Source of the DNA: Rhodobacterales bacterium
GTDB lineage: Bacteria > Pseudomonadota > Alphaproteobacteria > Rhodobacterales > CAZPXZ01
Length of the DNA stretch: 64,000 bases
Assembly: GCA_965222665.1 (NCBI GenBank)
Contig: CBDCUM010000007.1
Coordinates: 22,058-86,057, forward strand
Reading direction: 5' to 3'
In this document: piece after piece, positions 11,179-41,686 of the stretch
How positions within the stretch are numbered: position 1 is the first letter of the stretch
How the letters are laid out: every line of letters starts with the position of its first letter
Made by a program: the position numbers and the translations under genes
The notes under the pieces: model-generated
Databases searched by the model: none
What the model was told of the DNA's origin: nothing
Seen by the model: only the letters and a program-made list of their open reading frames with translations

Positions 11179-13719
11179 CTACCGTGTAGCCATAACTTGT
11201 CTACACAACGTGTTTCTTGGCCTGTTCCAGCATGTATCGTTTCCCCGCCTCGAAGCCGCGCTGCTGGCCAGCCTCGACACCGATTCTGTGGCCGATGGTC
11301 GCCTTGGTGAGCATGCTGTAGCCCTGCCACATGATCTGGTTCCCTGGCTCGGGGTCGAGCTTTCGCGCACGGTAGCCGCCGAGATGTGCGACCAGCTGCA
11401 CGCTCTTGCCGAGGTCGTCGGGCGCCGCGAGGCCTGCTTGAGACGCGTAGTCGCGAAGAAACGCGAGCTCGTGATCGGTGAACATCAGCTCGGCGTCGCA
11501 CTCCGGGACCTGGCGTCCGAGCAAGGTCATGAGCATGATCCGCCAGGCGATGACGGCATTGATGGCGATCGCCCGTTGCAGCCGGTCGGCCGTTCTGAAC
11601 AGCAGGAACTCGGACTTGCAGCCAGACTTGATCACTCGGAACCAATCTTCGACGCGCCAGCGCTGAAGATAGTGGCCGACGATCTCGGCGGCGGTTGCGG
11701 CATTGTCGACGGCAATGGATGTGAGCAGGTACCACTGAACCGGCGTTTCCTTCGCGGGCGGGTTGGTCTCCACGATGTGGACTGCAGACATCGGCACCGG
11801 TTCGATCCCCTTGCCGGTCGCCGGCAGCGAGACCGTGCAGAACCGCAGCTCGCAATGGGCAAGTCGTTTCGTGCGCGCCTCCCGCGCCTTCTTCCGGCTC
11901 GCCTTCGGGCGCTCGGTCAGCCCTGCAATCTCGACCTCGATCATGCCCGCCACGACCTGGGACCGCACCGTCGCAAACAGCGTCTGCTTCTCGCCCAGGG
12001 AGCGGTCGTGCCTGGCGCGTACCAGCAGTTCCACCCGGGAGGCGCGGCGCCGGGCGTCGAACAGTTCAAACACGTCCGCCTCGCGGTCACAGACCGCAAT
12101 CACCCGCGTCCTGCGGGTCAGCTCACGGGCCGCCTTGAGCGTGTCCTCGAACCCATCGAGCCACCGCGCCGTCTTGCATCGGGCGTTGCGCTGGTCGTTC
12201 ACCTCATCGAAGCCCAACCGCAACACGCCAAGCGGCAACCCGCTATCGGTCACCGCAAGCGTCGCATGCAGATGGAGTCCCAGCGTCCCGGCGCCGGTCT
12301 GGTTCTTGCCGATGATCTGCAGCCCTTCGGTGTGCGGACGGCGCGCAAAATTGAGGTCACTGCCGTCCTGGATCGCAAGCACCGTCCTCTGCCCGCGCAT
12401 GCGCGCGATGCTGCGCGCGCGGTGCGGAGCCAGGATGTTCTCCACCGTCACATCGGACTCCGAAGGATGCTCGACAAGACGGTAAAACCCGTCCACCGCT
12501 GCGTTGTTGCTGCCGGGATTGGCATTGATCGCGCGCCCGGGATACTCCGCAAGCAACGCCGCGCTCCTCACCAGCCGTACCGCCAATCGCTTGTCGCCCA
12601 ATGCCGCCCCTCCAAACTCGTTTGCAGCCCACACATCCGCGCCAAGACCCTCCCCGGGCCCCAGTATCGGCGCCGGATCCACAACCGGAACCTCCAGATG
12701 CCGCCGCCAGCGCCGGCAAAGCGCAACCATGAACACCGACTTGACCGGCTTGTCCCTCCGGTTCTCGCGATCCTGCCGCCCCCGCCCCGCTGTCTCGCCA
12801 ATGCGCACAAAGTTCGCAGCCTTCAGGCTCGCACCGTCATACTGCGCTTCCAGAAACGTCTCGACAAGCCAGGGCCGGAACCCGTATCGCGCCTCGAAAT
12901 CCCGCGGAAGACGCCGCAGGATCCGCCCCAGCACATGGCTCGCAAGATTGCCGCAGGAGACCTCCGCACGGATCAGGAACCGGCTCAGGCAGACAACCCG
13001 CTCAAGATGCGCCCGGCGCTGGTCGTCCGTCCAGGCCATCCAGCGCTCGCGTGCGGCAAGGCGCAAGGACGCCGCCGAAAACCCGACAGCGCCCAGAAAC
13101 CCGTGCTGTGAGGCGACAAGATAGCGCATCTGGTGGCCGGCAAACGTCGTGATGCCATGCGGATGCTCATGGGCAAGCAGCGTATTCCAGATCCGGCGCT
13201 GATCGCGAGAGCGCACAACGATGATCTCAAGCCCGGAAATCTCCGCAAGCCGGTTCGGAACCCCCTCCGGCGGAGCGACCGGCGCAGCAAGCAGTGACGG
13301 CCCCGAGAATACAGACGCCTCCCGGGCAGGGGGCAGGACAATCGCGTCCGATCGCTGCTCAAGGATCCGCAGCGCCTTGAGACAGCCCGCAAGCTGACCT
13401 CGGCCACGGTGGTCCAGGAAGTCGAACTCCTCACAAAGGCGCCGGCCAAGCGCGTGGCGGCTCTCGAACCGCTCGTGCAACAGGATCTCGGCAATCCGCG
13501 GAACCGCTGCATTCAGCGTGCGCTGGATCTGTGATTGTGCCATAGTGCCGACGGTATACACGATCGGTCTCGGGTTGTCCAGAGGTCTTTCCACCCACCT
13601 CCGCTGCCCTCGGAACGCCGGGCGCAAAGCGGTCAGGTCGGCCCGAAATCCCAGCCGCGCTCGCTTGCACACAGATCAGCCGGAGCACGTTGTCAGCCAA
13701 AATTGCAGCTACACGGTAG
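11179..13719 (-). mobile_element. Tn5-like (IS4 superfamily) insertion sequence, copy type 1, 2541 bp
   Basis: Terminal inverted repeats are CTACCGTGTAGC(C/T).. (11179-11197 versus the reverse complement of 13701-13719). The 8-bp direct repeat GGCTAGGC occurs at 11171-11178 and 13720-13727. It has a single transposase ORF. Confidence 0.85.
11201..13543 (-). CDS. fusion transposase: N-terminal DUF4338 (DruA-like) domain plus Tn5-type DDE transposase
   Basis: ATG 13543 (MAQSQIQ). The N-terminal 290 aa carry DUF4338-type blocks (GHQMRYLV, WMAWTDDQR, VVCLSRFLIR, NLASHVL, LVETFLE, LKAANFVRIGETAGRGR). Next comes the Tn5 N-terminal DNA-binding block (WAANEFGGAALGDKRLAVRLVRSA). DDE region: LAIQDGSDLNF, VIAVCDREADVFELF, YLQRWRVEDWFRVIKSGCK. 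Confidence 0.8.
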   Translation of the reverse strand: MAQSQIQRTLNAAVPRIAEILLHERFESRHALGRRLCEEFDFLDHRGRGQLAGCLKALRILEQRSDAIVLPPAREASVFSGPSLLAAPVAPPEGVPNRLAEISGLEIIVVRSRDQRRIWNTLLAHEHPHGITTFAGHQMRYLVASQHGFLGAVGFSAASLRLAARERWMAWTDDQRRAHLERVVCLSRFLIRAEVSCGNLASHVLGRILRRLPRDFEARYGFRPWLVETFLEAQYDGASLKAANFVRIGETAGRGRQDRENRRDKPVKSVFMVALCRRWRRHLEVPVVDPAPILGPGEGLGADVWAANEFGGAALGDKRLAVRLVRSAALLAEYPGRAINANPGSNNAAVDGFYRLVEHPSESDVTVENILAPHRARSIARMRGQRTVLAIQDGSDLNFARRPHTEGLQIIGKNQTGAGTLGLHLHATLAVTDSGLPLGVLRLGFDEVNDQRNARCKTARWLDGFEDTLKAARELTRRTRVIAVCDREADVFELFDARRRASRVELLVRARHDRSLGEKQTLFATVRSQVVAGMIEVEIAGLTERPKASRKKAREARTKRLAHCELRFCTVSLPATGKGIEPVPMSAVHIVETNPPAKETPVQWYLLTSIAVDNAATAAEIVGHYLQRWRVEDWFRVIKSGCKSEFLLFRTADRLQRAIAINAVIAWRIMLMTLLGRQVPECDAELMFTDHELAFLRDYASQAGLAAPDDLGKSVQLVAHLGGYRARKLDPEPGNQIMWQGYSMLTKATIGHRIGVEAGQQRGFEAGKRYMLEQAKKHVV

Positions 13720-14842
13720 GGCTAGGCGAGAGCTCGTCCGCCCGGCTTCGCCATTTCGCGAAATGGTCGGACAGGGAGGAAAGGAAGAGCCCGCGGCAAT
13801 TGGCACCTGCGAGGTTCCCGTTCATCATCAGTTCCTGCAGACCCTCGACCGCGATGGCGGTCCACAGATCCGGACCGGCACAGTGGTCGGGGATCGACAC
13901 CTCCGCGACCGTGGCGCCGAGGGAGCGGAAGCGCTCCGCGGCCGCCCGGACCTTTACGTCCACGTCCGGCTCGCTTTCCGGGCGGCCGAAACCCTCCTTC
14001 AGGATCCCGATGCGCATCCCGCGCGCTCCCCGGCCGAGCGCTTCCGTGTACCGGCCGGCCTCGGCCGCGCCCTGCCGAGGATCCATCCCGTCCGCGCCCG
14101 CGATCACTTCGAGCAGCAGCGCATTGTCGGCCACGGAGCGGGTTACCGGGCCGACATGGTCGATGGTCCGCTCGACCGGGATGATCCCGCTATAGGGCAC
14201 CAGCCCGTATGTCGGCTTCATGCCGAAGCACCCGCAATGGCTGGACGGGATGCGGATGGAGCCTCCCTGGTCGCCGGCGATGGCCAAGTCGACCTCGCCC
14301 GCGGCCACGAGGGCCGCGGACCCGCTTGAGGATCCGCCTGCCATGTAGCCGGGCTTGTACGGGTTGTGCACCGGCCCGGTGGCGCTGGTGTGGCTGCCCC
14401 CGGAGAGGCACATGTCCTCGCAAGTGGCCTTGCCGGCGATGATGGCGCCGGCGTCGAGCATGCGCGTCACGATCGTCGCATCGACCTCGGGGATGTATCC
14501 CTCCATGATCGAGGACCCGCTCATCATCGGCACGCCGGCAACGCAGACCGTATCCTTGACGGCAACGCGCCGGCCCGCCAGCGGCCCGCTGCCCGCTCCC
14601 TGGATCTCCGTCTTGTAGTACCAGGCGTTCAGCGGGTTCTCGTCCGGGCCCGGCCGATATCCGGGCGAACGCGGATAGCGGACCTGCGGCAGGAAATCCG
14701 GCAACGCGTCGAGACGCCCGTAGCCCTCCAGGTAGGGCTCCATGATCGCCAGATACCGCTCCAACTCCGCATCCGTCATCGACAGATGCAGCCGCTCCGC
14801 CAGCTCCCGCATCTCGTTCAGGGTTGGCCGCTTGATCGCCAT
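13720..14842 (-). pseudogene. amidase, N-terminal fragment (catalytic core), truncated by IS
   Basis: ATG 14842 is preceded by AGGGGG. Sequence MAIKRPTLNEMRELAERL..; Gly/Ser-rich amidase signature GGSSSGSAALVAAGEVDLAIAGDQGGSIRIPSSHCGCFGMKPTYG. The reading frame runs into the IS end (..ADELSP|SPTV*). Confidence 0.85.
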
Positions 14843-15712
14843 TTGCACCCCCTGTGCCGCTGCTTCCCCACGGGGCACCGCGATTCCGGCAACCCCGGCC
14901 GAGGCCCTACTTGTGCCGGCAGCTTCCGGCGCAGCGGGCGCAGCCGCCTTCTGCGGCAACGGCCGCACTGGTCCCCGCTCCCGGGCAGGCCGGCGGAATC
15001 CGAGGAACTCCTCGATCAAGCCGGCATCCCGGATCTCGTCTGGCCCCAGTTCAGCCCGGACCTGTCCCCGTTCCAGAACCAGGACCCGGCTGGCCAGGCC
15101 GCTGATGAACTCGATGTTCTGCTCGACGAGAAGAACCGCCAGCCCGCTCCCGCTCCGCGGCCTGGCGAGGGTTCCGGCGATCTCGTCGACGATGGAGGGC
15201 TGGATCCCTTCCGTCGGCTCATCAAGCAGGATCAGCGAAGGCGACCCCATCAGGCACCGCGCGAGGGCCAGCAATTGCTGCTCTCCCCCCGACAGCGCTC
15301 CTCCATCGCGACCCATGAGGCCGCCGAGCCGCGGAAAGGAATCCAGGATCCGGTCGCACAGCTCCTCCACCGAGCCGTCTCCCGTGTCCTGGTACGCGAA
15401 ACGCAGATTCTCCCGAACGGTAAGGCTTGGGAAAATTCCCCGTCCCTGCGGGACATAGCCGATGCCCGCCTGCGCCCGCGCGTGCGGAGGAAGCCGCGTG
15501 ATGTCGCTGCCATCCCAGCGGATGGCACCTGCCGAGGCGGGAATCAGACCCACGAGGGACCGGAGAAGCGTCGACTTGCCCACGCCGTTGTGGCCGAGCA
15601 CGCCAACGATCTCGGCCTCCCCGGCAGCCAGGCTGACATCCCTGAGCACCGGTATCCGCCCATAGCCTGCGGAGAGGCCGTCTACATCCAGGAGCGGGTC
15701 GGCCTGGCTCAT
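14843..15712 (-). CDS. ABC transporter ATP-binding protein (LivF/UrtE-like) with no stop codon before the amidase
   Basis: Walker A GHNGVGKST, signature LSGGEQQ, Walker B LILLDEPTEG. After ..EEFLGF a 50-aa Ala/Pro-rich linker runs in frame into amidase Met-291 (track ORF 13709..15712). Confidence 0.8.
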
Positions 15713-18311: not shown

Positions 18312-18423
18312 CTCCGGCCCCCGCGCGGCGTCAGTCTTCAACCGTCGGGCGCAGCGGAACGCGGCGCTTCGGCTGTGCTTCGCGCGAGGGCTGGCCCGAT
18401 CCGGCGCAACGGTCGCCTCCGAC

Positions 18424-19650: not shown

Positions 19651-19673
19651 GTTGGGTACCTCCTGTTCTTGTT

Positions 19674-27446: not shown

Positions 27447-28172
27447 GGCGTCCCTCCAGCTTTCTCGGGGCCATTCCGTGCGATCCATGCCGGCGTACAT
27501 GCCTGCGGCCCCCTGCCGCTGCCGGCCGCGAACCGCCGGACCAACTCCCATCGCCGCGGACGGCCGCCCCGAATGCGGGCAAGCGCCCGCCACAGTCCAA
27601 TAGCTTGGATCGCGCCCGCGTTCCAGCGCCCGACCCGCGCATCGCGGATCGCCACGGGCCTGCGGCCTCCGGTCGACACGGAATCCGGACCGGCCCAGCC
27701 GTGGCCTCCCGACGCATTCGTTTCCCCTCGAATCCCTCGGCCGCCAGACCCGTTGCCCACACCTGCAGCAGATTTCACGGCAGCCTCCGTCAACGCGCCA
27801 GAGCCCGGCACGAGCGGAAGGACGGACAAGCGCTGACAACCACCCGGGCTCCGAGAGCCGCGCGTGGATTCTCCGGGAGCGTACCTCCCCGCCGATCCGG
27901 CACCAAGCCGGATCGCCCCCGATGAACAGCGCCTTGCATTGCCCTGGAAGATCGAGGACCACGCTGAATCTGCAGGCCGTATGCCAGTGGCCCCGAAGCC
28001 CGGCCGCACGGGAGTTCAGCCTCACGGAACCGTGCTGCCAAGGGCTTCCGCGCGGTAAGTGTTCGTTCAGCACGTGACGGCTGGTTTTTCTTTTCGCGTG
28101 ATTCGTTAAGGGCTGGCAACTTTGCTCATCATGCGCTAACACGGGAGGCATGTTGAGGAAAGATTGTATTTG

Positions 28173-30038
28173 ATGATGGCGGCGGGCCCGGTTTTGGATC
28201 TGGTCGCGGACGACTCTGCGGTTGCTTGTCCGTCTGGCGCTCCGGAGGCTTGGCGGCGGCTTCACGAGGAAGAGAAGCGCCGCGCGGATACTGCGGACGG
28301 GCGTACCGAACGGCTCCAACGGGAGAAGGTTCAGGCGCACTGCGAGGCGCAGTACTGGAAAGCGCAGTGGGGTCGGGCCCGGAACGCGCTCGAGGCGGTG
28401 CGGGCGGAAGCGAAGGACTTGCGCGGTGTGTCCGGGGATGCGTTGCATCTGCGCTCGGAGGTCGTTCGTCTTGAGACCCTTCTTGCCGACATCGGCGTTG
28501 ACACGCGCAAGCGCAGCACGATCGCGTCCCTGCGGATCGAGAACGGCCGGCTGCAGACCGGGAGTGAAGCCCTGCGCAAGCAGCTGCAGGAGGTCGAGAG
28601 CGAGCGTGACGACCTGCGCTCGCAGATTGAGACCCTGTCGCGCGCGCAGTTCGGTCGCAAGAGCGAACAGGGCCGCAAGACGAGGCCGGAGCACAAGGGG
28701 AAGACCGGCGGCAAGCGCGGCCCACGGCCTGGCGGCGAGACCCACGGGCGCACACCGCGGCCCGAACTGGCCCGCAAGAAAGAGGTTCACGACCCGCCGC
28801 CCGAGGCGTTGGACTGTCCGTGCTGCGGCGCGCCCCGGGTGGCCAACGGATCGCACACATCGGACTTGATCGAAGTCGCGGTCAAGGCTCATGTGCGGGT
28901 CATCGACCGGACCCGCTGGCGCAAGACCTGCCAGTGTTCTGACACGCCTGAAGAGGTGTCGGCCCCACCCGTGCCGCGCCTGTTTCCGGGAACCGCGTTC
29001 GGTATCAGTGTCTGGACGCGGCTGCTGTTCGAGCTTTGCGTCGCCAACCGTCCCTTGCGGCGGGTCGCGGCGTGGTTTGAGGCGCAAGGCCTGTCGATCT
29101 CACCGGGAACGCTTTCGGACGGGCTGGGTCGGATGGCGGTGTTGTTTGCGCCGCTGTCGGCGGCGATCCTTGAGCATCTCCAACAGGCGCCGGTGGTCCA
29201 CGCCGACGAGACCGGCTGGCGGGTCCGGGAGTTCGCCGCGACGGGCTCGTCCAGCCGCGCCTGGCTATGGATCGCGACCTGCGTGGATGCAGTGTATCTG
29301 CATGTCGATGCATCGCGCAGCGCGGCGGCGGCCGCGACCTTGCTCGGAGGGCTGCGCAAGGGCGTGATCCTGGTATGCGATCGCTATAGCGCCTACAAGA
29401 AGCTGGCCCGCCTGGCGGCGGGCCAGCTGGTCTTGGCATTCTGCTGGGCCCATGTCAGGAGGGATTTCATCAAGGCGGCGGCGGCGCGTGGCGACCTTGA
29501 TGACTGGAAGGACCAATGGCTGGCCCGGATCCGGCGCCTGTACAGGTTGAACGCGCAGCGCTTGCGATTTCACGATCCCGGCAGGCCGCCTGACAGGAGG
29601 TATCTGAGGATGCACTTCCGTCTGTCCCGCGTCCTCGGGGAGGTCTTCATGGAGGCGGAACGGGAGCTTGCCACCGTTGATGATGCGTCGCCGCAGGGGA
29701 AGGTGTTGCAGTCTCTGCTGCGTCATCGCCGGGGGCTGTCCCGGTTCCTCGACGATCCCCGGGTTCCGCTCGACAACAATCTCGCTGAACGCCGCTTCCG
29801 CCTTGAGGTCATCCGCCGGAAGCTGTCGCTGGGCTCGGACAGCAAGGCCGGCGCAGAGGGCATGGCGACGATGCTTACGGTGGTCCGCACGCTTGAGGTC
29901 AACGACGTTGCGGTTTTGCCGTGGCTTGAGGCGTGGCTGTCTGCCTGTGCCGCCAATGGTGGCCGCCCGCCGGAAGATCTCGGCCCGTGGCTGCCCTGGA
30001 CGATGAACGAGGCGCGCCGGGCAGAGTTTCGCGCGTGA
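28173..30038 (+). CDS. IS66-family transposase (TnpC-type), no tnpA/tnpB companions
   Basis: Coiled-coil N-terminus, zinc-finger CPCCGAP..., then [73 protein letters not shown]. Probable ATG 28173 follows GAGGAAAG. Confidence 0.88.
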
Positions 30039-30919
30039 GCGCGGCACCGACATGCCGCTATGCGGGGCGCGACTTCACCGAGGTCGAGATCGCGCTGATC
30101 CGGGATCTGATTGCCGAGGATCCGAAGCTGACCCGAGCTCACCTGTCGCGGGCGTTCTGCCGCCGGGTCGGCTGGGTCAAGCCCGACGGCGGGTTGCGGG
30201 ACATGATGGCGCGTTGCGCGCTGCTGGCGATGCATCGCGACGGGCTGATCGTCCTGCCGCCACCACGACGCCCGCGCCATGCGCCCAGACCGGTCGTCTT
30301 CGGGCCGGAGAGCGAACCACCGCTGCCGCCGCCGCCCGCGACCATCGAGGCGGTGCGGCCGCTCAGCCTCGTCCCCGTCCTCGACCGGACCAGCCACAAC
30401 GCCCTACTGTGGAAGCAGTTTATCGCCCGCTACCATTATCTCGGATACAAGCCGATGGCCGGTGCCCAGATGCGCTATACCGTGGTCGACCGCCACGGCG
30501 CCTCGCTCGCCATGATCGGCATGGCAGCAGCAGCCTGGAAGACCGCGCCGCGAGACCACGCCATCGGATGGAGCCCGGAGACCCGGGCGCGCAATCTCCA
30601 TCTCGTGGTCAATCAGTCCCGCCTGCTTCTACTGCCCTGGATCGTCATCCCAAACCTCGGATCCCACATCCTGTCGATGCTGCGCCGACAACTGCCCGGC
30701 GACTGGACCCAACGCTATAATGTCGAGCCCGTCCTGATGGAAACATTCGTCGAAACACCGCGCTTTGCCGGCACAATCTACAAGGCCGCAAACTGGACCT
30801 GTATCGGCACCACCAGCGGACGCGGACGCTACGACACAAAACATGAATGCGCCCTCACTAAAAAAAACATCTGGCTGCAGCCGCTACGCAGAGACTGGAA
30901 GCGCAGACTCAACGAATGA
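30035..30919 (+). CDS. DUF4338 (DruA-like) domain protein, encoded inside the IS66-family element
   Basis: GTG 30035 overlaps the transposase TGA (GTGA). Blocks YHYLGYKPMAGAQMRYTV, RDHAIGWSPETR, LVVNQSRLLLLPWIVIPNLGSHIL, VLMETFVETPRFAGTIYKAANWTCIGTTSGRGRYD. Confidence 0.8.
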   Translation: MSAAPTCRYAGRDFTEVEIALIRDLIAEDPKLTRAHLSRAFCRRVGWVKPDGGLRDMMARCALLAMHRDGLIVLPPPRRPRHAPRPVVFGPESEPPLPPPPATIEAVRPLSLVPVLDRTSHNALLWKQFIARYHYLGYKPMAGAQMRYTVVDRHGASLAMIGMAAAAWKTAPRDHAIGWSPETRARNLHLVVNQSRLLLLPWIVIPNLGSHILSMLRRQLPGDWTQRYNVEPVLMETFVETPRFAGTIYKAANWTCIGTTSGRGRYDTKHECALTKKNIWLQPLRRDWKRRLNE

Positions 30920-31046
30920 TAGAAATCATCACCTGCTGAACGAACGCTTACTCCGCGCGACCGTCGGGAGAGGCGCCCGCCTGGACGTCAACTCTTTGGC
31001 CCGTGAGATGAAATTCAGATGTCCGGACCTCGGGAGTGAATCGAGC

Positions 31047-32294
31047 TCACCTATTTGAACCCGAAGGGTCCGGATCGGCCGTATTCCCGGGCAGTTCGTA
31101 GATCATCCGGAGGTTGGTGCCTGGGAAGATCGTCCGGGTCAGGTTGAGTTCCTGGAGGAGGCCTGCAGTGGCGTTGTCGCCAGCGTCGCTGGCGGTGCCG
31201 AGGATGCGAATGCGGAGGATGCCGTTGGAGGGCTCCGGGATGATGTCGGCGTCGGATTGGAAGATCGCGCGCAGGTGCCTGCGGGGTCGCTGTGTCTTGC
31301 CCTGTGCCTGTGCGACGACAGGCATCATGCGGGTTTCGGCGCGGTAGGCGATCATGCGGATGACGTCGAGGAGGAGCTTCTCGCCTTCGGGAAGCGCATC
31401 CAGGGCCTGGTGGTCGTCGAGCTCGGCGACGGTGATGTGGCGCTGCGTGTCGCTGCGCTTCTGCTTGAGCGCCTCACGCTCGGCGTCGAGAGCGTCGATC
31501 CGGGCCTGGAGACGTCGGGCGGCTTCGGCGGTCTGGTGAGACTGGGCTCCCTTGGCCAGATCGGCGATCCTGTTGCGCAGGGTGCCGAGGCGTTGCCGGA
31601 AGCGGCTGACATTTCGGTCGATTGCGCGCCAGAGCGGGTTGACGACGCGGGCTTCGGGATCCTGCGGCTCCAGGCCGCGGACCACGAGGGCGTCGAGATT
31701 GAACTCCTCGCGCATATATTTGAAGAAGTTCTCCTGCGACCAGCGGGAGAACAGGGCGCCGGCGATCTGCTCCACGGGCATGCGGGAGTGGGTGGTAATG
31801 AGCGGGACCTGGCGGCCGCTTTCCAGCAGGCGGCGGATCTGGCGGACCTCGGGCCCCTTTTTCAGTTGCACGCGCTTCTCGGCGAGGCGGACGGTGGCGC
31901 TGCGGGTCGTGCCCGGTCCATGGATCGGTACCGCGACACTGCGGAACTCCGCCTCCGGCCAGTCCTCCCCCTTGAAGCCCTTGTGCCAGGTGATCACCGC
32001 AACGCCGCGCCGGGCGAGGCGCTTGAACAGTGCCGGGCTCCAGCCTTCCCGGTCGAAGACCAGCGTCAGGGCGGGCTCGCCGGCATCCGGGGCGGTGAGA
32101 TCCGGCGCCTCCGGGCCCAGCATGCCCAGCTTCTCCAGCGCAGGCAGGATGTCCGCCTCCAGCGCGTGGGTCATGGTCGGATCCAGCGCCTTGTTCAGGC
32201 ACAGGAAGGGCTTGCCGCCAAGCGCGTTGATCCAATAGCTCGTGGACGCGGGCAGGCATAGTTTCTGTCGCGCCACGAAGTGCTTTGGCAATTT
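31047..32294 (-). pseudogene. IS-B transposase, C-terminal part (disrupted by IS-A)
   Basis: LPKHFVARQKLCLPASTSYWINALGGKPF..LVFDREGWSPALFKRL..FSRWSQENFFKYMREEFNLDAL... By eye roughly 85% identical to the IS-A protein. Confidence 0.85.
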
Positions 32295-34812
32295 CAGACT
32301 TCCTGACCTCGAACTCGAGAGAGTGTCATGTTTTTGCACCCGCGAAGTGGGGCTCGGCGATTTTTCCGGGTAGTTCATAGACCATGTGCATGTTGGTACC
32401 GGGGAAGACGGTCCGTGTCTGGTTGAGTTCTTCGAGGAGGCTTGCGATGGCGTTGTCGCCGGCATCGCTGGCGGTGCCGAGTATGCGAACGCGGAGGATG
32501 CCGTTGCCGTGCTCCGGGATGACGTCGGCGTCGGCCCGTAGAAGTGCGCGCAAGTGCCGGCGGGGGCGCTGGATCTTGCCCTGGGTCTGGGCAACGGCGG
32601 GCATCATGCGGGTTTCAGCGCGGTAGGCGATCATGCGGATTATATCGAGGAGGAGTTTCTCGCCTTCGGGGAGCGCGTCGAGTGCCTCGTTCGTGTCGAG
32701 TTCGGCGACCGCGATATGTCGCGGTGTATCGCGGCGCTGCAGCTTGAGGGCTTCACGCTCGGCGTCGAGAGCGTCGCTTTGGGCCTGCAGGCGCCGGACG
32801 GCCTCTTCGGCTTCGCGGGTCGGGGTTCCCCTGGACAGGTCGGCGATCCGGTTGCGCAGGGTGCCAAGGCGCTGCCGGAAGCGCTGGACATTGCGGTCGA
32901 TTGCGCGCCAGCGCGGGTTGACGATGCGGGCGTCGGGATCCTGTGCTTCCAAACCGTGGACCGCCAGCGCGTCGAGATTGAACTCCTCGCGCATGTATTT
33001 GAAGAAGTTCTCCTGCGACCATCGGGAGAACAGGGCGCTGGCGGCCCGCTCCATGGGCATGCGGGGGTCGGTGGTGATGAGGGGCACCTGGCGGCCATTC
33101 TCCAGCAGGCGCCGGATCTGGCGGACTTCGGGCCCCTTGCTCAGGATCACGCTCTTCTCGGCGAGGCGGACGGTGGCGCTGCGGGTGCTTCCCGGCCCGT
33201 GGATGGGCACCGTGACGGTGCGGAAGTCCGCCTCCGGCCAGGCCTCCCCCTTGAAGCCCTTGTGCCAGGTGATCACAGCAACCCCGCGCCGGGCGAGGCG
33301 CCGGAACAGGGCAGGGCTCCAGCCTTCCCGGTCGAAGACCAGCGTCAGGGCGGGCTCGCCGGCGTCCGGGACGGTGAGGTCCGGTGCATCCGGGCCCAGC
33401 ATGCCCAGTTTCTCCAGCGCGGGCAGGATGTCCTTCTCCAGCGCGTGGGTCATGGTCGGATCCAGCGCCTTGTTCAGGCACAGGAACGGCTTGCCGCCGA
33501 GCGCGTTGATCCAGTAGCTCGTGGAGGCAGGCAGGCAGAGTTTCTGGCGCGCCACGTAATGCTTGGGCAATTTTCCCTTGCGGCCGGAATACACCTTGAC
33601 GTGGCCATCCACCGACAGGGTCGCACACACGTCCGGTTCTTCCGCCATCCATCCCGCGGCCAGGGAAGCTTGCCAGTCCCGCACCCGTTGCACGTCTCGC
33701 CCCAACGCCTTGATCTTGCCCCGCAGCGTCTTCACCTCCGGGCAGCGGTCCAGGCCCAGGATGGCGCCCCATTCCCCGGGCGCCTGGTGCCGCAGTGCCT
33801 CCGGATTGCGCACCCGGGCCAGGGTGAGGAAGGCCAGGAACAGCAGAACCGTGGTCAAACCGTAGTATCCCTTGGGCAGCGACAGGAACTCCCGCGCGCG
33901 GTCCAGAAGCCCCTCCTTGAGCAGCATCGGCAGCCCGGCCAGCACGCCGCCGCCGGCAACCGCCGACAGCGGCTCCGCAAACTGCGGCCGCATCTCCGTC
34001 AGATGTCCCGTTGCCGCCAGCATCCGCCCCGCCGTGTCCCGGGTGCCCCGACCCATCGGCGCCTCGCGGTCGCGTGCGTCCCGTTCGCTCCGCTCCACCC
34101 TCGGCTCCGGCGCTGCCGCCGCCTGTGGCTCCGTCGACGCGACCACCGGCGGCTCCAGCACTGCCGTCGCCTGCGGCTCCGTCGACGCTGTCGCCTGCGC
34201 CGGCACGGCCCGGTTCGGCGTCCCCCCTCTGATAACACCCGACCGGCGGTTGAGGCTGAACGTGCTCGGCCGGATCCCCAGCTTTCGCGCAACCGCCCGG
34301 CCGCTCAGCCCCGAGGCCAGAAGCCGCTCCGCCTCCCGCGCCGTCGCGGCGTCGATCGCGCTCGGCCCGCGCCTCCGTCGCGGCGTAAGAAAACCGGCCT
34401 CGCCCTGCCTCCGGAGCTGGTTCACTGCCCGCTGCACCGTCGAACGGTTCACGCCAAACGCCGCCGCCAGATCCCTGCGTAGCACACCGTGCTCGGCAAA
34501 CCGCGCAATCCGCAGCTGTCGCGCTCGGTTGTCCGAAACTTCGTGGGAATCGAACGGCGCCAGGTTGCTGAAGTAGACCCGCCGGCCGTCCTCGACCGCG
34601 TGCGAAAAGCAGGATTCGCCGATCTGGATCGCCTCGGCAGGAGGCATCGGAAGCGTGTTCAAGGGAGTCTCCACGGTCGATATCGGGTGCACAGTATTAT
34701 AGCCACTCTCCGTAGATCGGTCAACCCCTCAAATGTCTCCTAACTGCTGGAAATCACGAGCAAAACGATCGCCAAGCCCGCCTTCAATTAGCGCACGAGG
34801 TCAGGAAGTCTG
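32295..34812 (-). mobile_element. unclassified DDE insertion sequence 'IS-A', copy 1, 2518 bp
   Basis: Perfect 17-bp terminal IR CAGACTTCCTGACCTCG (32295-32311; reverse complement at 34796-34812). The 5-bp duplication AATTT lies at 32290-32294 and 34813-34817. The protein is identical to copy 2. Confidence 0.92.
32326..34692 (-). CDS. IS-A transposase (788 aa): N-terminal HTH domains plus IS4-superfamily-like DDE domain
   Basis: HTH-like LRRDLAAAFGVNRSTVQRAVNQL and LSGRAVARKLGIRPSTF. Candidate DDE residues: SVDGHVKVY, LVFDREGW, SRWSQENFFKY. C-terminal coiled coil. Two 100% identical copies exist in the window. Confidence 0.85.
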   Translation of the reverse strand: MHPISTVETPLNTLPMPPAEAIQIGESCFSHAVEDGRRVYFSNLAPFDSHEVSDNRARQLRIARFAEHGVLRRDLAAAFGVNRSTVQRAVNQLRRQGEAGFLTPRRRRGPSAIDAATAREAERLLASGLSGRAVARKLGIRPSTFSLNRRSGVIRGGTPNRAVPAQATASTEPQATAVLEPPVVASTEPQAAAAPEPRVERSERDARDREAPMGRGTRDTAGRMLAATGHLTEMRPQFAEPLSAVAGGGVLAGLPMLLKEGLLDRAREFLSLPKGYYGLTTVLLFLAFLTLARVRNPEALRHQAPGEWGAILGLDRCPEVKTLRGKIKALGRDVQRVRDWQASLAAGWMAEEPDVCATLSVDGHVKVYSGRKGKLPKHYVARQKLCLPASTSYWINALGGKPFLCLNKALDPTMTHALEKDILPALEKLGMLGPDAPDLTVPDAGEPALTLVFDREGWSPALFRRLARRGVAVITWHKGFKGEAWPEADFRTVTVPIHGPGSTRSATVRLAEKSVILSKGPEVRQIRRLLENGRQVPLITTDPRMPMERAASALFSRWSQENFFKYMREEFNLDALAVHGLEAQDPDARIVNPRWRAIDRNVQRFRQRLGTLRNRIADLSRGTPTREAEEAVRRLQAQSDALDAEREALKLQRRDTPRHIAVAELDTNEALDALPEGEKLLLDIIRMIAYRAETRMMPAVAQTQGKIQRPRRHLRALLRADADVIPEHGNGILRVRILGTASDAGDNAIASLLEELNQTRTVFPGTNMHMVYELPGKIAEPHFAGAKT

Positions 34813-35897
34813 AATTTCCCCTTGCGACCGGAATAGATCTTCACATGCCCGTCCACGCACAGCGTGGCGCCGACCTCCGGGTCCTCCTCAAGCCATCCCG
34901 CCGCCAGGGAGGATTGCCAGTTCCGCACTTGCTGCACATCCTGCCCCAGCGCCTTGATCTTGCGCCGCAGCGTCTTCACCTCCGGGCAGCGGTCCAGGCC
35001 CAGGATCGCGCCCCATTCCCCGGGCACCTGGTGCCGGAGCGCCTCCGGATTGCGCACCCGGGCCAAGACGAGGAACGCCAGGAAGAGCAGAACGGTGGTC
35101 AACCCGTAATACCCCTTGGGCAGCGACAGGAACTCCCGCGCGTGGTTCAGAAGCCCCTCCTTCAGCAGCATCGGGAGCCCGGCCAGCACCCCCCCGCCGG
35201 CAACCGCCGACAGCGGTTCCGCAAACTGCGGCCGGATCTCGCTCAGATGCCCCGTCGCGGCCAGCATTCGTCCCGTCGTGTCCCGAGCCCCACGGCCCAT
35301 CGGCGCTGCCCGGTCGCGGGCGTCCCGTGCGCTTCGCTCAATCGGCGGCTCCAGCGCGTCCCGCTCCGGTGCTTCCTGCGGCGCCTCCCGCTCCGCAGGT
35401 GCTTCCGGATCCGGTTCAGCCTTCGCCGTCCCGGCCGGCATCCCACCCCCGACAACGCCTCGCCGGCGATTGTCGTTCAGCGTCCGCACCGGAATCCCCA
35501 GCCGTCGCGCAACCGCCGAGCCGCTCAGACCCGAGGTCAAAAGACGGTCCGCTTCCCGCGCCATGTCGGCATCGATTACGCTCGGACCGCGCCCGCGGCG
35601 CGGCGCAAAGAAGCTCGCCTCGCCGTCCCTCCGGAGTTGGTTCACCGCCCGCTGTACCGTCGAGCGGCTCACGCCGAGCGCCTCCACCAGGTCCGAGCGA
35701 GGGACACCGCTCTCCGCGAACTTCGCGATCCGAAGCAACTTCGCTTCGCGCTGATCGTCAGCGTGAAAATCAAACGGCTCAAGATTGGAGAAATACTCCA
35801 CTCGGCCGTCCCGCCTCACGAAGGAAAAGCAGGAGTTGCCAATCTGGACCGCCTCGGCGGGTCGCATCGGAAGCGTGTTCATGAGATCCTCGGGCAC
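34813..35897 (-). pseudogene. IS-B transposase, N-terminal part
   Basis: MNTLPMRPAEAVQIGNSCFSF..VSRSTVQRAVNQLRRDGEA..YYGLTTVLLFLAFLVLARVRNPEALRHQ..CVDGHVKIYSGRKGK, then the IS-A end. Confidence 0.85.
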
Positions 35898-36164: not shown

Positions 36165-36806
36165 GTGATCACGATCAGCGAAGAAATCCTGCTGCTGCTG
36201 CTGGACTACGATTCCGGTGTGATGAACGGCAGCATCGCGCCGAACTCAGGCGCCAATGCGGTCAGCGGAGGCATCCTGATGGACCTCGCGCTGGAGGGCC
36301 GCATCGATACCGATCCCGACACCCTGTTCATGATTGACCCCGAACCCGTTGGCGAGCCAGCTCTCGACAACGCGCTGTCCCGGATTGCGGTCGACAACAG
36401 ACACCGGACCATCGACTACTGGGTGGACACCTTCGCCGCGGATTCGGAGCGTGCGCAGACGCAGCTGGTCGACCGCCTGATTTCCCGCGGCATCCTGTTC
36501 CGGGGGCCGTATGACCGGCTTTGGGTCATGGGAACGCGCAACTATGTGCAGGAGGATGGCCTTCCATTGCGGGATGTCCGACAACGGATCGCGGGCGTGC
36601 TGCTGAGCGGAGAGCTTCCCGACTCGAGGGACGTCATGATCATCAGCCTCGCCGATGCCTGCCGGCTGTGGCGCGGACTGATCGACGAGGACAGCCAGGA
36701 CGCCCTGGCCCCGAGGATCGAGCAAATCGCCAGGATGGACTTCATTGGCCAGGCGGTGGTGCGGTCCATCCGCGAGCATGAAGACTCTGAAGAATCCGTG
36801 CACTAG
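36165..36806 (+). CDS. GPP34/GOLPH3-family protein
   Basis: GTG 36165 follows GGGAGGGG. ITISEEILLLLLDYDSG......GGILMDLALEGRID... and ..VDRLISRGIL.. fit the pattern I associate with the GPP34 family (PF05719). The assignment is from memory. Confidence 0.6.
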   Translation: MITISEEILLLLLDYDSGVMNGSIAPNSGANAVSGGILMDLALEGRIDTDPDTLFMIDPEPVGEPALDNALSRIAVDNRHRTIDYWVDTFAADSERAQTQLVDRLISRGILFRGPYDRLWVMGTRNYVQEDGLPLRDVRQRIAGVLLSGELPDSRDVMIISLADACRLWRGLIDEDSQDALAPRIEQIARMDFIGQAVVRSIREHEDSEESVH

Positions 36807-36923
36807 CATCCGGGTTGTCCAAGCCTGAACCGGTCGCGGTTTCGCATCCGCCACGCACCGGAAGCAGGCAACGAGCCCGACCGCCGGCAAGCAGTATTCG
36901 ATGCCGCGTTGAAACGGGTCGAA

Positions 36924-38141: not shown

Positions 38142-39192
38142 ATCGTCTGGAAAGCCGCTTTTCGGCGCTGCTTACCGGGCCGGCTCGTCCCGGCGCCATT
38201 CAGCCCGAATCCTCAGAATGGGGGCCGGCCGGACCCTGCATCTTGTCGAGTCCGGCAGTGGCGAAGTGCTCACGCACGCGGCGCCAGAATTGCTCCGGCG
38301 CGAGCCCCGTCTCGGCAAGTTACCTTCGGAAATTGTGTTTCCGGACGGCTGGCGCTTCGAGACCATGGATCACGACGGCCTCGACGCGATTCTCCGCTCC
38401 CGGGGCCAAGGCTGGCTTCATCGCTCTGAAGCCTACCAACCTCGCCTGGCACTCATCATTCCGGTCTGCCTGGTGCTGGGCTACGCAGTCTGGCGATGGG
38501 GCCTCATCGTCCTGGTTGCCGTTGCGGTCGCAGCGACTCCGGCGGCACTCCCCCGCGCCATCGACGACAGCAATCTTCTGGTAATCGACCAATTGGCTGC
38601 TCGGCCAACCCGACTGAACGATGCGCAATTGGACAACGTGCGTCACGTATTCGCACGGCTGGAAGCTGCGGCGGGACCGTCTCCATTTGGCGAGTTCAGG
38701 CTGCTGTTCCGCAGAATTCCGGGCATCGGTCCCAACGCGTTCGCAATGCCCGGCGGGACAATTGTCGTCACGGACACGCTCATTGAGCGTTTCCCCGACG
38801 ACGACATCATCGCCGGCGTGCTCGCCCATGAAGTCGCCCATGTTGCGGAAGGCCACGCCCTTGAACAGCTCTACCGCGAGACCGGCATTCGGCTGCTGGG
38901 CGGACTGGTATTCGGGGAACTCGGCCCCGTCCTGGAACGCGCCGCAACCGAAGGAGAAGCGCTCCTGTCCCTCGCCCATTCCCGGGAGCATGAGGCGGAA
39001 GCGGATCGGTTCGGAGTCGCACTGGCAGCGAGAGCGGGATTCGAGCCAGCAGGCCTTGCCCGGCTGTTCGAGGGACTGGACTCCCTTGGGCCGCTACCGG
39101 AGACATCCTGGTGGTCCACGCACCCCGCGCCCGAGGACCGCATTGCGCAGATCCGCCGCTACGCGGAGGAGATTCGAGAGTCGACGTTGTAG
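38122..39192 (+). CDS. M48-family zinc metallopeptidase with N-terminal membrane-anchored domain
   Basis: HEVAHVAEGH (HExxH) plus a downstream EHEAEADRFG third ligand. TM segments ALIIPVCLVLGYAVWRWGLIVLVAVAVA. ATG 38122 overlaps the DUF898 gene end by 20 nt. Confidence 0.85.
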   Translation: MSEQVSESSGKPLFGAAYRAGSSRRHSARILRMGAGRTLHLVESGSGEVLTHAAPELLRREPRLGKLPSEIVFPDGWRFETMDHDGLDAILRSRGQGWLHRSEAYQPRLALIIPVCLVLGYAVWRWGLIVLVAVAVAATPAALPRAIDDSNLLVIDQLAARPTRLNDAQLDNVRHVFARLEAAAGPSPFGEFRLLFRRIPGIGPNAFAMPGGTIVVTDTLIERFPDDDIIAGVLAHEVAHVAEGHALEQLYRETGIRLLGGLVFGELGPVLERAATEGEALLSLAHSREHEAEADRFGVALAARAGFEPAGLARLFEGLDSLGPLPETSWWSTHPAPEDRIAQIRRYAEEIRESTL

Positions 39193-39257
39193 GTTTCCGG
39201 CCGGTGGCAGCCCGACGTCGGAAGCCCTTCCGGCCTGTGGCTATCCTGTCCCGCGGC

Positions 39258-41686
39258 CTGCCCTTGCTACATAACTCTTCGCTTGACACGGCCTGAAATC
39301 GGGTGCATGTTATGAGACATGTATGAGCAGAGCCGCATTCTCGAAAGCGTTACCAGTGCTGCGGGCGAGGCCCGCATCCGGTTGCTGACGGCTGCGGAGA
39401 GTTTTGCCAATCGCACGGCGCTCGGCCGCCGGGTGTGCGAAGAGTTCGGATTCTACGATGCGCTTGGCCGGCCGCAACAGGCGAGCTGCATGAAGGCGCT
39501 GCGAACGCTTGACGAACGAGGGCGGATCACGCTGCCTGCACCGCGCAATGGCGGCGGCGGTGGCGCGCCTCGCGGGCTTGGGCACCCGGTTCCGGTTCCC
39601 GAGGGAGTTCCTTCGCGTGTCGACGCAGTGGAGGGGTTGTCGCTTGTGCTGGTGGTTGGCGATGGCGAGCGCCGGGTTTGGAACGAGTTGATCGCGCGGG
39701 AGCATCCTCGCGGGGTGGTGCGGCATGCGGGAGCGCAGCTTCGCTATCTGATTGTTTCGGATCACGGCGTTCTGGGGGCTCTGGGATTTGCGGCCTCGGC
39801 ACTGGCGCTGGCGGCGCGGGACCAGTGGATCGGCTGGGACGCGGCCTTGCGCAAGCGTCAGTTGCATCGGGTGGTGGGACTGAGCCGGTTCCTGATCCGT
39901 CCGTCCGTGAGTTGCCGGAACCTGGCCTCGAAGGCGCTGGGTCTGTGCCTGCGGCGTCTGGGGGAAGACTTTGAGCAGCACTACGGGTACCGGCCGCTGC
40001 TGGTAGAAACCTTTCTCGATCCTGCGAGGCACGGCGGCGCCAGCCTTGCCGCGTCGAACTGGATCCGTGTCGGCGAGACGGCCGGCCGCGGTCGATTTGC
40101 GGCGAGCGGTGCCCAGGTGCCGGTGAAGTCGGTGTGGGTGGTTCCCTTGGCCGCGAACTGGCGTCGGCAGCTGGGGATCCCGGAGCGCGCGCCGGTTCCG
40201 GCGATCTGCGTCGGAGACGGCCTGGATCGCGAGCAATGGGCGCAAAACGAGTTTGGTTCGGCGCCTCTTGGCGATATACGGTTGAGCAGGCGGCTGGTGA
40301 GGAGCGCCGCGGTTCAGGCCGACCACCCGATGTCGTCCTTTCCCGCGGCCGCGCAATCGGACAAGGCGATGGTGGTGGGCTACTACCGGATGATCGACCA
40401 GCCGGCGGATTCAGAGGTGTCGCCGACGAACATCCTGGCGCCGCACCGGGCACGCACGCTGCAACGGATGCAGGGGGCGGACGTGGTTCTGTGCATCCAG
40501 GACGGAACCGATCTGAACTTCGCCGAGCATCCCGGCTGCGCGGGACTTGGGCTGATCGGCCGGAACAAGGGATCTTCGGGAACGTTGGGGCTGCACATGC
40601 ACTCGATGCTGGCGGTCAATGGCGACGGCATTCCGCTGGGAGTTCCGCACATCCAGTACGACGCGCCGGACGGTGCGGCGGAGCGGGACAAGCCGCCCGA
40701 AGAGCGCAAGACGCAGCGGTGGGTGCGCGGACTGCAGGACTGCGACCGGCTGGCCCGCGAACTGGACGGTGTGCGCCCGGTGTCGATTGCGGACCGGGAG
40801 GGCGATTTGTTCGAGTTGTTTGTCGAGCAGCGCCGCCTCGGCACCGTCGACCTGCTGGTGCGCGCGAAGCACAACCGGTCGCTCGGACGCAAGCAGCCGA
40901 AGCTCTTCGATGTGGCGCAGGCGCAACCCGTGCGCAAGCAGCTCGAGATCCATGTGGCGCGCAGCTCGGCGCGCCGGGGAACCCGACGGCAGAAGGCGCG
41001 CGGGAAGCGGGACGCACGCAAGGCAGTTGTCGAGTTGCGCTGGAGTGCGGTCGAGCTACCGCCGCCCGAGACGAGCAACTTCCGGAACGAGGCGCCGATC
41101 CGCCTGAACCTGGTGCATGTTCACGAGCCGGAGCCGCCGGACGGGGACAAGCCCCTCGAATGGTTCCTGCTGACCAGCCTGCCGGTGGCCTCGGACCGCG
41201 ATGCGGAGCGGATCCTCAAATGGTATCGCCTGCGCTGGCGCATCGAGGACTGGCACCGGGTCCTGAAATCAGGCTGCAAGGTCGAATACCTCGGTCATCG
41301 CACCGGCGATCGCATCGAGCGGGCCGTAACCATCAACGCGGTCATCGCATGGCGCTTGACGGCGATGACGATGATGGGCCGCGATACTCCGGAACTGCCG
41401 GCAGACATCCTGTTCTCCGACATCGAGATCATGGCGCTCGAAGACTTCGCAAGCGACCGCAAGCTGCCCGCGCCCGGCAATCTCGGGCTGGCGGTGCTCA
41501 CCATGGCCATGCTCGGCGGATACCTCAACCGCAAAAACGATCCGTGGCCAGGCCACGAGAAAATCTGGGAGGGATATACGCGCCTTGCGGTCGCCGCGCA
41601 GACCTACGAAAGACTCATCCGGATGGACCGCACCAGCAACTTGTATCAGAGGCTGCGCCCGGACAAGACTTGTGGGTAAAAGGCAG
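39258..41686 (+). mobile_element. Tn5-like (IS4 superfamily) insertion sequence, copy type 2, 2429 bp
   Basis: 19-bp ends CTGCCCTTGCTACATAACT (39258-) and reverse complement CTGCCTTTTACCCACAAGT (-41686). The 8-bp duplication CCCGCGGC lies at 39250-39257 and 41687-41694. Confidence 0.85.
39319..41679 (+). CDS. fusion transposase: N-terminal DUF4338 (DruA-like) domain plus Tn5-type DDE transposase
   Basis: GAQLRYLIV, DQWIGWDAALR, VVGLSRFLIRPSVSCRNLASKAL, LLVETFLD and LAASNWIRVGETAGRGR. Next the Tn5-type block WAQNEFGSAPLGDIRLSRRLVRSA. DDE: LCIQDGTDLNF, VSIADREGDLFELF, WYRLRWRIEDWHRVLKSGCK. Confidence 0.85.
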   Translation: MYEQSRILESVTSAAGEARIRLLTAAESFANRTALGRRVCEEFGFYDALGRPQQASCMKALRTLDERGRITLPAPRNGGGGGAPRGLGHPVPVPEGVPSRVDAVEGLSLVLVVGDGERRVWNELIAREHPRGVVRHAGAQLRYLIVSDHGVLGALGFAASALALAARDQWIGWDAALRKRQLHRVVGLSRFLIRPSVSCRNLASKALGLCLRRLGEDFEQHYGYRPLLVETFLDPARHGGASLAASNWIRVGETAGRGRFAASGAQVPVKSVWVVPLAANWRRQLGIPERAPVPAICVGDGLDREQWAQNEFGSAPLGDIRLSRRLVRSAAVQADHPMSSFPAAAQSDKAMVVGYYRMIDQPADSEVSPTNILAPHRARTLQRMQGADVVLCIQDGTDLNFAEHPGCAGLGLIGRNKGSSGTLGLHMHSMLAVNGDGIPLGVPHIQYDAPDGAAERDKPPEERKTQRWVRGLQDCDRLARELDGVRPVSIADREGDLFELFVEQRRLGTVDLLVRAKHNRSLGRKQPKLFDVAQAQPVRKQLEIHVARSSARRGTRRQKARGKRDARKAVVELRWSAVELPPPETSNFRNEAPIRLNLVHVHEPEPPDGDKPLEWFLLTSLPVASDRDAERILKWYRLRWRIEDWHRVLKSGCKVEYLGHRTGDRIERAVTINAVIAWRLTAMTMMGRDTPELPADILFSDIEIMALEDFASDRKLPAPGNLGLAVLTMAMLGGYLNRKNDPWPGHEKIWEGYTRLAVAAQTYERLIRMDRTSNLYQRLRPDKTCG

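Follow-up and report, generated by a model that had tools for sequence, protein, structure and literature searches.

Three DUF4338 copies on three insertion sequences

The window analysed here, a stretch of 64,000 nucleotides from the genome of a Rhodobacterales bacterium (contig CBDCUM010000007.1, positions 22,058 to 86,057), contains three insertion sequences (ISs) each of which encodes, along with a transposase, a domain of the DUF4338 family (Pfam PF14236, named DruA), hereinafter the module. In two ISs of the Tn5 type, denoted A and B, the module constitutes the N-terminal part of the transposase polypeptide itself, and in an element of the IS66 family it is the product of a stand-alone gene, C (Table 1); a tblastn search of the 64-kb window reveals these three copies and no others. 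All three elements are bounded by inverted repeats (IRs) and by target-site duplications (TSDs) of 8 bp, are intact and have recently moved. Most of what an earlier note on this DNA had claimed withstands the computational analysis: the three open reading frames (ORFs) exist, and their translations contain all six of the sequence blocks said to be shared by the three copies (6/6); the boundaries of the elements are as given there; the module does lie within intact, recently moved ISs from two unrelated families of DDE transposases; the first ~290-295 residues of A and B, as well as gene C, are assigned to DUF4338 by the PF14236 hidden Markov model (HMM) with scores (85.5-133.8 bits) far above the 27-bit cut-off; and the identity between A and B, estimated by eye at ~50%, is measured at 47.8% over 759 amino acids (aa).

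Table 1. Coordinates of the three insertion sequences, their target-site duplications, genes and DUF4338 modules
Feature	Position	Strand	Evidence or remark
IS A, 2,541-bp IS50-subgroup (Tn5-like) IS	11179..13719	-	terminal IRs CTACCGTGTAGC...
TSD copies of IS A, GGCTAGGC	11171..11178 and 13720..13727		identical 8-mers
Fusion transposase A, 780 aa, DUF4338 + Tn5-type transposase	11201..13543	-	Pfam (DruA 85.5 bits, 4.6e-24), NCBIfam, motifs
DUF4338 module of A, residues 1-295, predicted N-terminal helical domain + Mom-like GNAT core	12659..13543	-	
IS66-family element, 2,897 bp, two overlapping genes	28055..30951	+	IRs GTAAGTGTTCGTTCAGCACGTGA / GTAAGCGTTCGTTCAGCAGGTGA
TSD copies of IS66 element, TCCGCGCG	28047..28054 and 30952..30959		perfect 8-bp repeat
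IS66 DDE transposase, 624 aa from first TTG	28164..30038	+	DDE_Tnp_IS66 5.2e-60; transpos_IS66 1.9e-85
DUF4338 gene C, stand-alone, 294 aa, GTG start	30035..30919	+	Pfam DruA 8.9e-39, 133.8 bits
IS B, 2,429-bp IS50-subgroup (Tn5-like) IS	39258..41686	+	IRs CTGCCCTTGCTACATAACTCTT / CTGCCTTTTACCCACAAGTCTT, 15/22 matches
TSD copies of IS B, CCCGCGGC	39250..39257 and 41687..41694		identical 8-mers
Fusion transposase B, 786 aa	39319..41679	+	Pfam DruA 111.5 bits, 5.6e-32; NCBIfam IS4_3 1.6e-94
DUF4338 module of B, residues 1-295	39319..40203	+	AlphaFold model, Foldseek

Downstream of the module, the polypeptides of A and B are ordinary Tn5-type transposases. Each matches the Tnp_DNA_bind, DDE_Tnp_1 and Dimer_Tnp_Tn5 families of Pfam, the DDE/YREK signatures (DG(T/S)D, DRE(G/A)D and Y..RW.(I/V)ED......K) are found in both translations, and the match to the NCBIfam IS4_3 equivalog is restricted to residues ~353-760 (353-750 in A). 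The ends of the elements (CTACCGTGTAGCCATAACTT in A and CTGCCCTTGCTACATAACTC in B) fit the pattern CW------Y---CA-A--W-, from which B deviates at position 9; the IRs of B begin with CTGCC..., and the B-like IR resembles the outside end of Tn5. The IS50 subgroup is described as having ends of precisely this pattern, TSDs of 8-9 bp and a typical length of 1350-1550 bp (PMC2266710). A and B share with IS50/Tn5 the domain complement (Tnp_DNA_bind, DDE(YREK) and the Tn5 dimerisation domain), the fitting ends and the TSD of 8-9 bp, but differ in size: these elements and their relatives (2,399-2,469 bp) span 2.40-2.54 kb, compared to the typical 1.35-1.55 kb, and the extra length is accounted for by the ~295-aa N-terminal enzyme-like module. 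The insertion of IS A can be undone in silico, the removal of the IS together with one TSD copy yielding one continuous frame and a complete amidase ORF, in which the Pfam Amidase match extends over positions 35-442 of 445, as against 35-300 in the interrupted gene; the two parts of the split gene occupy 10860-11178 and 13728-15200 on the minus strand. The insertion point of IS B falls within the last codons, at the 3' end, of a TPR gene (41615-43339, minus strand).

The fusion junction is the same in A and B, and module and transposase have diverged in parallel, with 50% identity between the modules (residues 1-295 of A aligned with 1-300 of B) and 44% between the transposase parts, so that a single ancestral fusion is indicated. 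Hence the three recruitments of the domain counted in the earlier note are too many: judging from the sequences, the window displays two independent associations of DUF4338 with a transposase, the Tn5-type fusion and the IS66 arrangement.

In the IS66-family element, the module is indeed encoded by a separate gene, as the earlier note had it. The start of this gene had to be corrected: the ORF (29933/30035-30919, plus strand) in fact begins with the GTG at 30035, which gives a length of 294 aa, as in the 98%-identical protein P0121. This GTG overlaps the stop codon of the IS66 transposase gene as GTGA, and C is probably translationally coupled to that gene. Over the module, C shows 36-37% identity to A and B, with E-values of 1e-31 to 1e-37. 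The element belongs to the IS66 family by virtue of its DDE_Tnp_IS66 transposase, its terminal IRs, which read GTAAG(T/C)GTTCGTTCAGCA..., and its 8-bp TSD; it differs from the canonical tnpA-tnpB-tnpC organisation in that the DDE gene and the downstream DUF4338 gene, and nothing else, are found between the IRs. The gene content is equally limited to these two at four other loci (L086, L087, L089 and L092), and among the IS66 relatives, the DUF4338 module is also found upstream of the transposase or fused to its C-terminus.

Spread, gene arrangements and selection

A scan of the GTDB genomes, with one genome per species and a 9-sequence alignment as the query, detected 397 relatives of the module. 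The best 79 of these 397 loci are found in metagenome-assembled genomes (MAGs) of Bryobacterales, Vicinamibacterales, Alphaproteobacteria and Rariloculaceae. A single soil MAG of Bryobacterales or Vicinamibacterales can contain dozens of full-length copies, and soil Acidobacteriota reach tens of copies per genome; at most of these 79 loci, the whole 786-aa protein aligns in a single frame, and the nearest genome copies of protein B are 71% identical to it. In 47 Tn5-type copies, both the ends and the duplications could be delimited, and each copy is flanked by a TSD of its own. In an exhaustive profile search, the PF14236-type family comprises 11,738 representative clusters (at 50% identity) with E<=1e-3 and 1,941 with E<=1e-30. 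Stand-alone proteins of ~290 aa and Tn5 fusions of ~780 aa score best; the best 150 clusters are mainly of two lengths, either ~290-310 aa or ~700-810 aa, and some shorter fragments lie in between. Many database relatives are frameshifted fragments; the stand-alone gene of the C type is represented by 2,872 clusters at E<=1e-5, mostly of 293 aa. The Tn5 fusion was found in none of 72,556 plasmids and the domain itself in two only, both from Thiodictyon; among the viral contigs of IMG/VR, a scan confined to exact patterns recovered essentially no relatives.

The module and the transposases come together in diverse ways. At all ten other IS66 places that were examined (L083-L092, namely, eight genomic contexts of one C-type protein and two further loci), the module gene overlaps the preceding IS66 transposase gene by 4 nt; of the eight contexts, three have this upstream gene in full length (632 aa) and the rest have it in fragments. 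In addition, a DUF4338 gene is located upstream of an IS66 transposase gene with zf-IS66 and DDE_Tnp_IS66_C domains (L092, 1-1442), the proteins P0359 and P0401 are single-polypeptide IS66::DUF4338 fusions, and an unfused DUF4338 gene overlaps a downstream gene for a 456-aa Tn5-type transposase by 4 nt (L093, 3501-5764). An N-terminally shortened module is fused to a transposase of the ISAs1 type on the Thiodictyon plasmid pTs417 (L001, 3908-5242; WP_216644545.1); the architecture of this protein, annotated as 'ISAs1 family transposase', is DUF4338(core)::DDE_Tnp_1_assoc::DDE, which makes it a representative of a third transposase family with the module. All in all, at least six gene arrangements join the module to transposases of the Tn5, IS66 and ISAs1 types. 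In a neighbour-joining tree of the domain, A and B belong together to the main Tn5-fusion clade and C belongs to the IS66 clade; this tree is star-like and too weak to count the recruitment events.

Two of the loci look as if they had been rearranged later. On another Thiodictyon plasmid, pTs485 (L002, 5001-9773), a DUF4338 gene and a gene for a 408-aa Tn5-type transposase are separated by integrase and IS91-family transposase genes, and the entire cluster sits within a split DUF2235 gene; this looks like a two-gene DUF4338/Tn5 element that was later interrupted by another element. A 2.78-Mb metagenome contig (L091, 4001-6705), which probably stems from the organism of the window or a very close one, carries a copy of the IS66+DUF4338 element. 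Its module gene matches C with 100% identity in an alignment that covers 77%; downstream of the premature end of this gene come a DDE_Tnp_1_4 transposase gene and, behind it, a 60-aa ORF with a faint PF14236 match, which suggests an interruption of the module gene by another IS.

Purifying selection acts on the module: over 41 pairs of copies that are 80-95% identical, the medians of dN/dS amount to 0.22 in the N-terminal domain, 0.32 in the GNAT core (see below) and 0.43 in the transposase. Among 429 family members (numbering as in protein B), R190 and W173 are present in ~100% and 100%, respectively, H129, Y143 and R167 in 99% each, D217 and E230 in 98% each, R142 and S204 in 97% each, and the residues of the GRGR motif in 92-99%; position 234 is acidic in 88% and position 243 is a tyrosine in 68%. 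The conservation of the module is thus of the kind seen in enzymes. That the module is a component of the ISs and matters for their fitness is, in our assessment, close to certain.

ISs are usually thought to encode a transposase alone, sometimes complemented by a regulator or a target-selecting ATPase. The DUF4338 module belongs to the regular make-up of very abundant IS lineages, in which it is strongly conserved and has so far gone undescribed. In the literature library that was searched, no paper ties DUF4338, PF14236 or DruA to insertion sequences or to Mom (the protein discussed in the next section), and in public databases these proteins go by no names other than 'DUF4338 domain-containing protein' and 'IS4/Tn5 family transposase DNA-binding protein'; the models used for IS annotation span only residues ~350-750, so that the module is left unannotated. 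We rate the novelty as that of an accessory enzyme-like module on known kinds of ISs, namely, elements of the IS50 subgroup and of the IS66 family.

The predicted fold and the probable relationship with Mom

What kind of protein is the module? The AlphaFold model of residues 1-300 of protein B, built with a 34-sequence alignment, has a mean pLDDT of 90 and consists of a helical domain (residues 7-66), a linker and a GNAT-like alpha/beta core (residues 108-284). According to this model, the module very probably adopts the GNAT fold, in agreement with the published statement that DUF4338 is a GNAT domain (PMC10853773). In a Foldseek search of the PDB, the top match is the Mom protein of bacteriophage Mu (8bv8, chain 8bv8_B; E 7e-6, TM 0.60), followed by other GNATs; there are 94 PDB matches at E<=1e-3, and almost all among the 50 listed are GNATs. 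A sequence search of the PDB with the family profile produced a marginal GNAT match only (E 1.3). Among the predicted viral structures of BFVD, the matches are small phage GNAT-like proteins, Mom and Mom-like proteins. The same search also brought up Mom-like GNAT domains within phage homing-endonuclease or endonuclease-like proteins, for example, in Campylobacter phage CP21, another pairing of the Mom-like GNAT fold with nucleases of mobile DNA.

The Mom family of Pfam (PF25680) is matched by 15 of the 34 alignment members at E<=1, with the best E-value of 6.6e-5, and is the only family repeatedly matched apart from PF14236 and the adjoining Tnp_DNA_bind. In hhalign, the family is aligned with Mu Mom with E-values of 4e-3 (against the single sequence) and 6e-4 (profile to profile), and R190, S204, D/E234, Y/L243 and N247 of the module are paired with R111, S124, D149, Y159 and N163 of Mom, respectively, with modest confidence in the alignment; in protein A, the positions equivalent to R111, S124 and D149 of Mom are occupied by R, S and E. 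Furthermore, the Q/RxxGxG/A motif that binds acyl-coenzyme A (acyl-CoA) in the beta4-alpha3 loop is absent from all three copies, which have RPSVSCRN (B), RAEVSCGN (A) and LPWIVIPN (C) in this place. Mom takes glycine from Gly-tRNA and attaches it to N6 of adenine in double-stranded DNA, which it binds as an obligate dimer (PMC13219725), and functions as an anti-restriction enzyme of a transposable phage (PMC13219725, PMC7261163). The points shared by the module and Mom include the GNAT fold with Mom as the best PDB match, the conserved equivalents of R111, S124, D149 and Y159, the lack of the canonical CoA loop motif, and the encoding by an element that transposes with a DDE enzyme, Mu in the case of Mom. 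There are also differences: the identity is only ~17%; the module lacks the essential HTH-like insertion of Mom (residues ~175-209) and a clear equivalent of R151; it possesses an additional N-terminal helical domain and the GRGR motif; and Mom is the product of a late phage gene, whereas the module is fused or coupled to IS transposases and its activity is predicted. On balance, Mom is likely to be the nearest characterised relative of the module. The claim of the earlier note that the function of the domain is unknown is not supported as worded and can be sharpened accordingly, to a predicted GNAT fold with Mu Mom as the nearest relative.

Combining these lines of evidence, we favour the interpretation, to which we give about an even chance of being correct in full, that each of the three active ISs carries its DUF4338 copy as an integral accessory module maintained by selection, that these modules are Mom-like transferases of the GNAT fold and that they are not defence genes. 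Several observations weigh against it. The gathering score of PF25680 (27.1 bits) is not reached by any of the relatives, of which the best score 22.9 and 20.9 bits, and the B module from the window does not match this family at all; the probability of the profile-to-profile alignment in hhalign is just 28%, a weak sequence link; and in Foldseek, generic GNATs, such as SpeG and PA2578, score nearly as well as Mom. In the hhalign alignment, most of the HTH-like insertion of Mom and R151 are opposite a gap, with no clear counterpart in the module. The N-terminal 76-aa domain, when modelled alone (pLDDT 87), has no significant match in the PDB, the best E-value being 1.5, with several winged-helix domains among the weak matches. 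The sequence gives no sign of what the module modifies, and for the IS66-type elements with the same module, no target consensus was found, so that there is no common DNA motif to serve as a pointer to a DNA substrate.

Possible roles of the module in transposition

If the module is a Mom-like transferase, how could it contribute to the life of an IS? The gene structure shows that the module is produced along with the transposase or as a portion of it, and the near-invariance of the residues of catalytic type makes it likely that it is catalytically active. By analogy with Mom, the module could, tentatively, transfer an acyl or aminoacyl group that is supplied not by the canonical acyl-CoA but by another donor, possibly an aminoacyl-tRNA, a suggestion made because the CoA loop motif is missing and because of the likeness to Mom. 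More speculatively still, the acceptor might be a nucleic acid at or near the transposition complex, whereby transposition would be promoted, timed or protected. In functional terms, there is a precedent of sorts: Dam methylation gates the transposition of IS10 and IS50. The analogy is that a DNA mark at the ends or the promoter of the element gates transposition; the difference is that Dam is a host methyltransferase, whereas the putative writer in the present case would be an acyl or aminoacyl transferase encoded by the element itself, and the parallel is entirely hypothetical. In its strongest form, to which we assign a low probability, this line of thought implies that DUF4338 is a new class of nucleic-acid-modifying GNATs that write an acyl or aminoacyl mark on DNA from aminoacyl-tRNA or another non-CoA donor; that ISs of at least three DDE families carry it as an epigenetic switch or shield of their own in transposition; and that DruA would be the self-marking module of type I Druantia, in the same capacity as the methyltransferase DruM in type II.

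An unlikely alternative is that the module acylates a protein, either the transposase or a nucleoid or repair factor of the host, thereby tying transposition to the metabolic state of the cell. The structural neighbours of the module include small-molecule and protein N-acetyltransferases (SpeG, RimI, HP0935 and NatD), and the occurrence of the module both in fused and in separate form across three transposase families would befit a regulator that acts on a shared step or a host factor. However, the canonical pyrophosphate-binding motif for acyl-CoA is absent, Pfam detects only Mom besides DruA and none of the Acetyltransf families, the residues aligned with the catalytic arginine and serine of Mom are near-invariant, and the arginine-rich GRGR motif suggests a nucleic-acid ligand.

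The alternative that directly involves defence has to be considered together with the comparison with Druantia. PF14236 marks DruA of type I Druantia (PMC7251935) and constitutes the N-terminal domain of some DndF proteins (PMC10853773). When the three proteins are compared with the PADLOC DruA model (PDLC00002, 407 positions), A gives no match, and B and C give E-values of 0.0025 and 0.0011 over 50-75 residues. The operon of type I Druantia also includes druB, druC, druD and druE, the latter encoding a large DUF1998 helicase. No candidates for druB-E are present in the window among the ORFs scanned, with the models of druB-D not run on every ORF; nor is there an ORF of the size of DruE, no plausible one in the window exceeding ~830 aa. 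The scanned ORFs with a high GC content in third codon positions (GC3) are transport, metabolic or transposase genes, bar two without a Pfam match (59491-61965 and 54331-55521). The modules of the window share the Pfam family (PF14236/DUF4338) with DruA but differ from it in that they comprise ~295 residues, as opposed to the 407 positions of the model, lie within the boundaries of ISs and have no druB-E neighbours; by these features, the DUF4338 copies in the window are not a piece of Druantia, and the view of the earlier note that they do not belong to such a system is borne out. Its warning about false Druantia calls holds for matches to the Pfam 'DruA' family taken in isolation, which would mislead, but not for multi-gene defence finders, which would not be fooled (the PADLOC DruA model gives E-values of ~1e-3 or no match). 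In practice, the Pfam name will cause thousands of IS genes to be taken for defence genes.

Against this background, there is only a slim chance that the module is a cargo with a role outside transposition, that is, either an anti-restriction or self-marking enzyme of the Mom type or a component of Druantia that became detached, with a benefit for the host or for the element following horizontal transfer. Such a role would have parallels in the anti-restriction activity of Mom on a transposable phage (PMC13219725, PMC7261163) and in the presence of PF14236 in type I DruA (PMC7251935) and at the N-termini of some DndF proteins (PMC10853773). The in-frame fusions with transposases, in at least three arrangements, and the 4-nt gene overlaps argue, instead, for stoichiometric co-function; furthermore, the Druantia component would be without candidate druB-E partners in the window and has but a marginal PADLOC DruA match, and the module is essentially absent both from IMG/VR, within the limits of the pattern-based scan, and from the 72,556 plasmids. 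Should DruA itself share the properties predicted for the module, this would translate into a testable hypothesis for its function in Druantia, namely, that DruA is a Mom-like modification enzyme.

The target sites of the Tn5-type elements bring in another possibility. In the A-like clade, CTAG occupies TSD positions 3-6 in 20 of 22 independent copies (background 0.0007, P~1e-61), the commonest target being GGCTAGCC; in the B-like clade, the centre of the TSD is CGCG in 13 of 21 copies, and SSYGCRSS is found in 16 of 21. The TSDs in the window conform to these preferences, with GGCTAGGC fitting the A-like consensus NSCTAGCC and CCCGCGGC fitting the B-like consensus SSCGCGSS. In contrast to the weak consensus of Tn5, these targets (GGCTAGCC or SSCGCGSS) are strictly palindromic. 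In five Vicinamibacterales loci (L052, L067, L072, L074 and L079), A-like IS copies abut head to tail, with the spacing of the ORFs equal to the length of the IS; these arrays may have arisen by repeated insertion into a palindromic target that is regenerated by each insertion.

Could it be, then, that the module is a non-catalytic domain for DNA binding, target selection or dimerisation that is built on an inactive GNAT scaffold? The unusually strict targets of the Tn5-type fusions (CTAG in 20/22; SSCGCGSS) would be compatible with this, as would the fact that Mom is an obligate dimer that binds double-stranded DNA (PMC13219725). We nevertheless consider this possibility quite improbable, given that a near-invariant constellation of polar residues matching the catalytic residues of Mom would be unexpected in an inactive scaffold, that the IS66 elements with the module show no target consensus, and that the Tnp_DNA_bind domain, which is retained, serves IRs similar to the outside end of Tn5. 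A target of comparable symmetry, NGCTNAGCN, is used by IS10, an element without a domain of this kind, so that the Tn5 core can explain the specificity. On these two counts, namely, the lack of a consensus in the IS66 elements that carry the module and the similar symmetry of the target of IS10 that does not, a role of the module as the determinant of target choice is not supported.

That the modules are a chance or annotation artefact, or that the elements are dead relics, is next to impossible: apart from the many frameshifted fragments among the database relatives, no support for this was found, and the E-values down to 1e-39 against a curated HMM, the intact ORFs, IRs and TSDs, the amidase restored by in-silico excision and the purifying selection already refute it. 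If the module is catalytic, as the Mom-like transferase interpretation predicts, this would be the first description of ISs with an acyl transferase as an accessory function.

Other features of the window

Apart from the three elements, the window encompasses genes for branched-chain amino-acid ABC transporters, an AMP-binding enzyme, a flotillin, a truncated aldehyde dehydrogenase and more transposases, as well as a glycerol-kinase-like ORF recognised by eye. A 2,519-bp IS that encodes a 788-aa PF21804 (Transposase_29) protein is present in two copies, inverted relative to each other and 100% identical, at 32295-34813 and 50134-52652, the first of these being nested inside a related copy with 79-86% identity (31072-32294 + 34813-35881). 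The identical copies bracket the segment 34814-50133, with IS B and an ABC transporter operon inside, and the IS pair together with this segment may be a composite transposon. The ORF at 59491-61965 (minus strand) is 824 aa long and has a coding-like GC3, with no Pfam match. Finally, a 213-aa protein encoded at 36165-36806 (plus strand) matches GPP34 (Golgi phosphoprotein 3, PF05719) with an E-value of 5e-38, an unexpected name for a bacterial chromosome.

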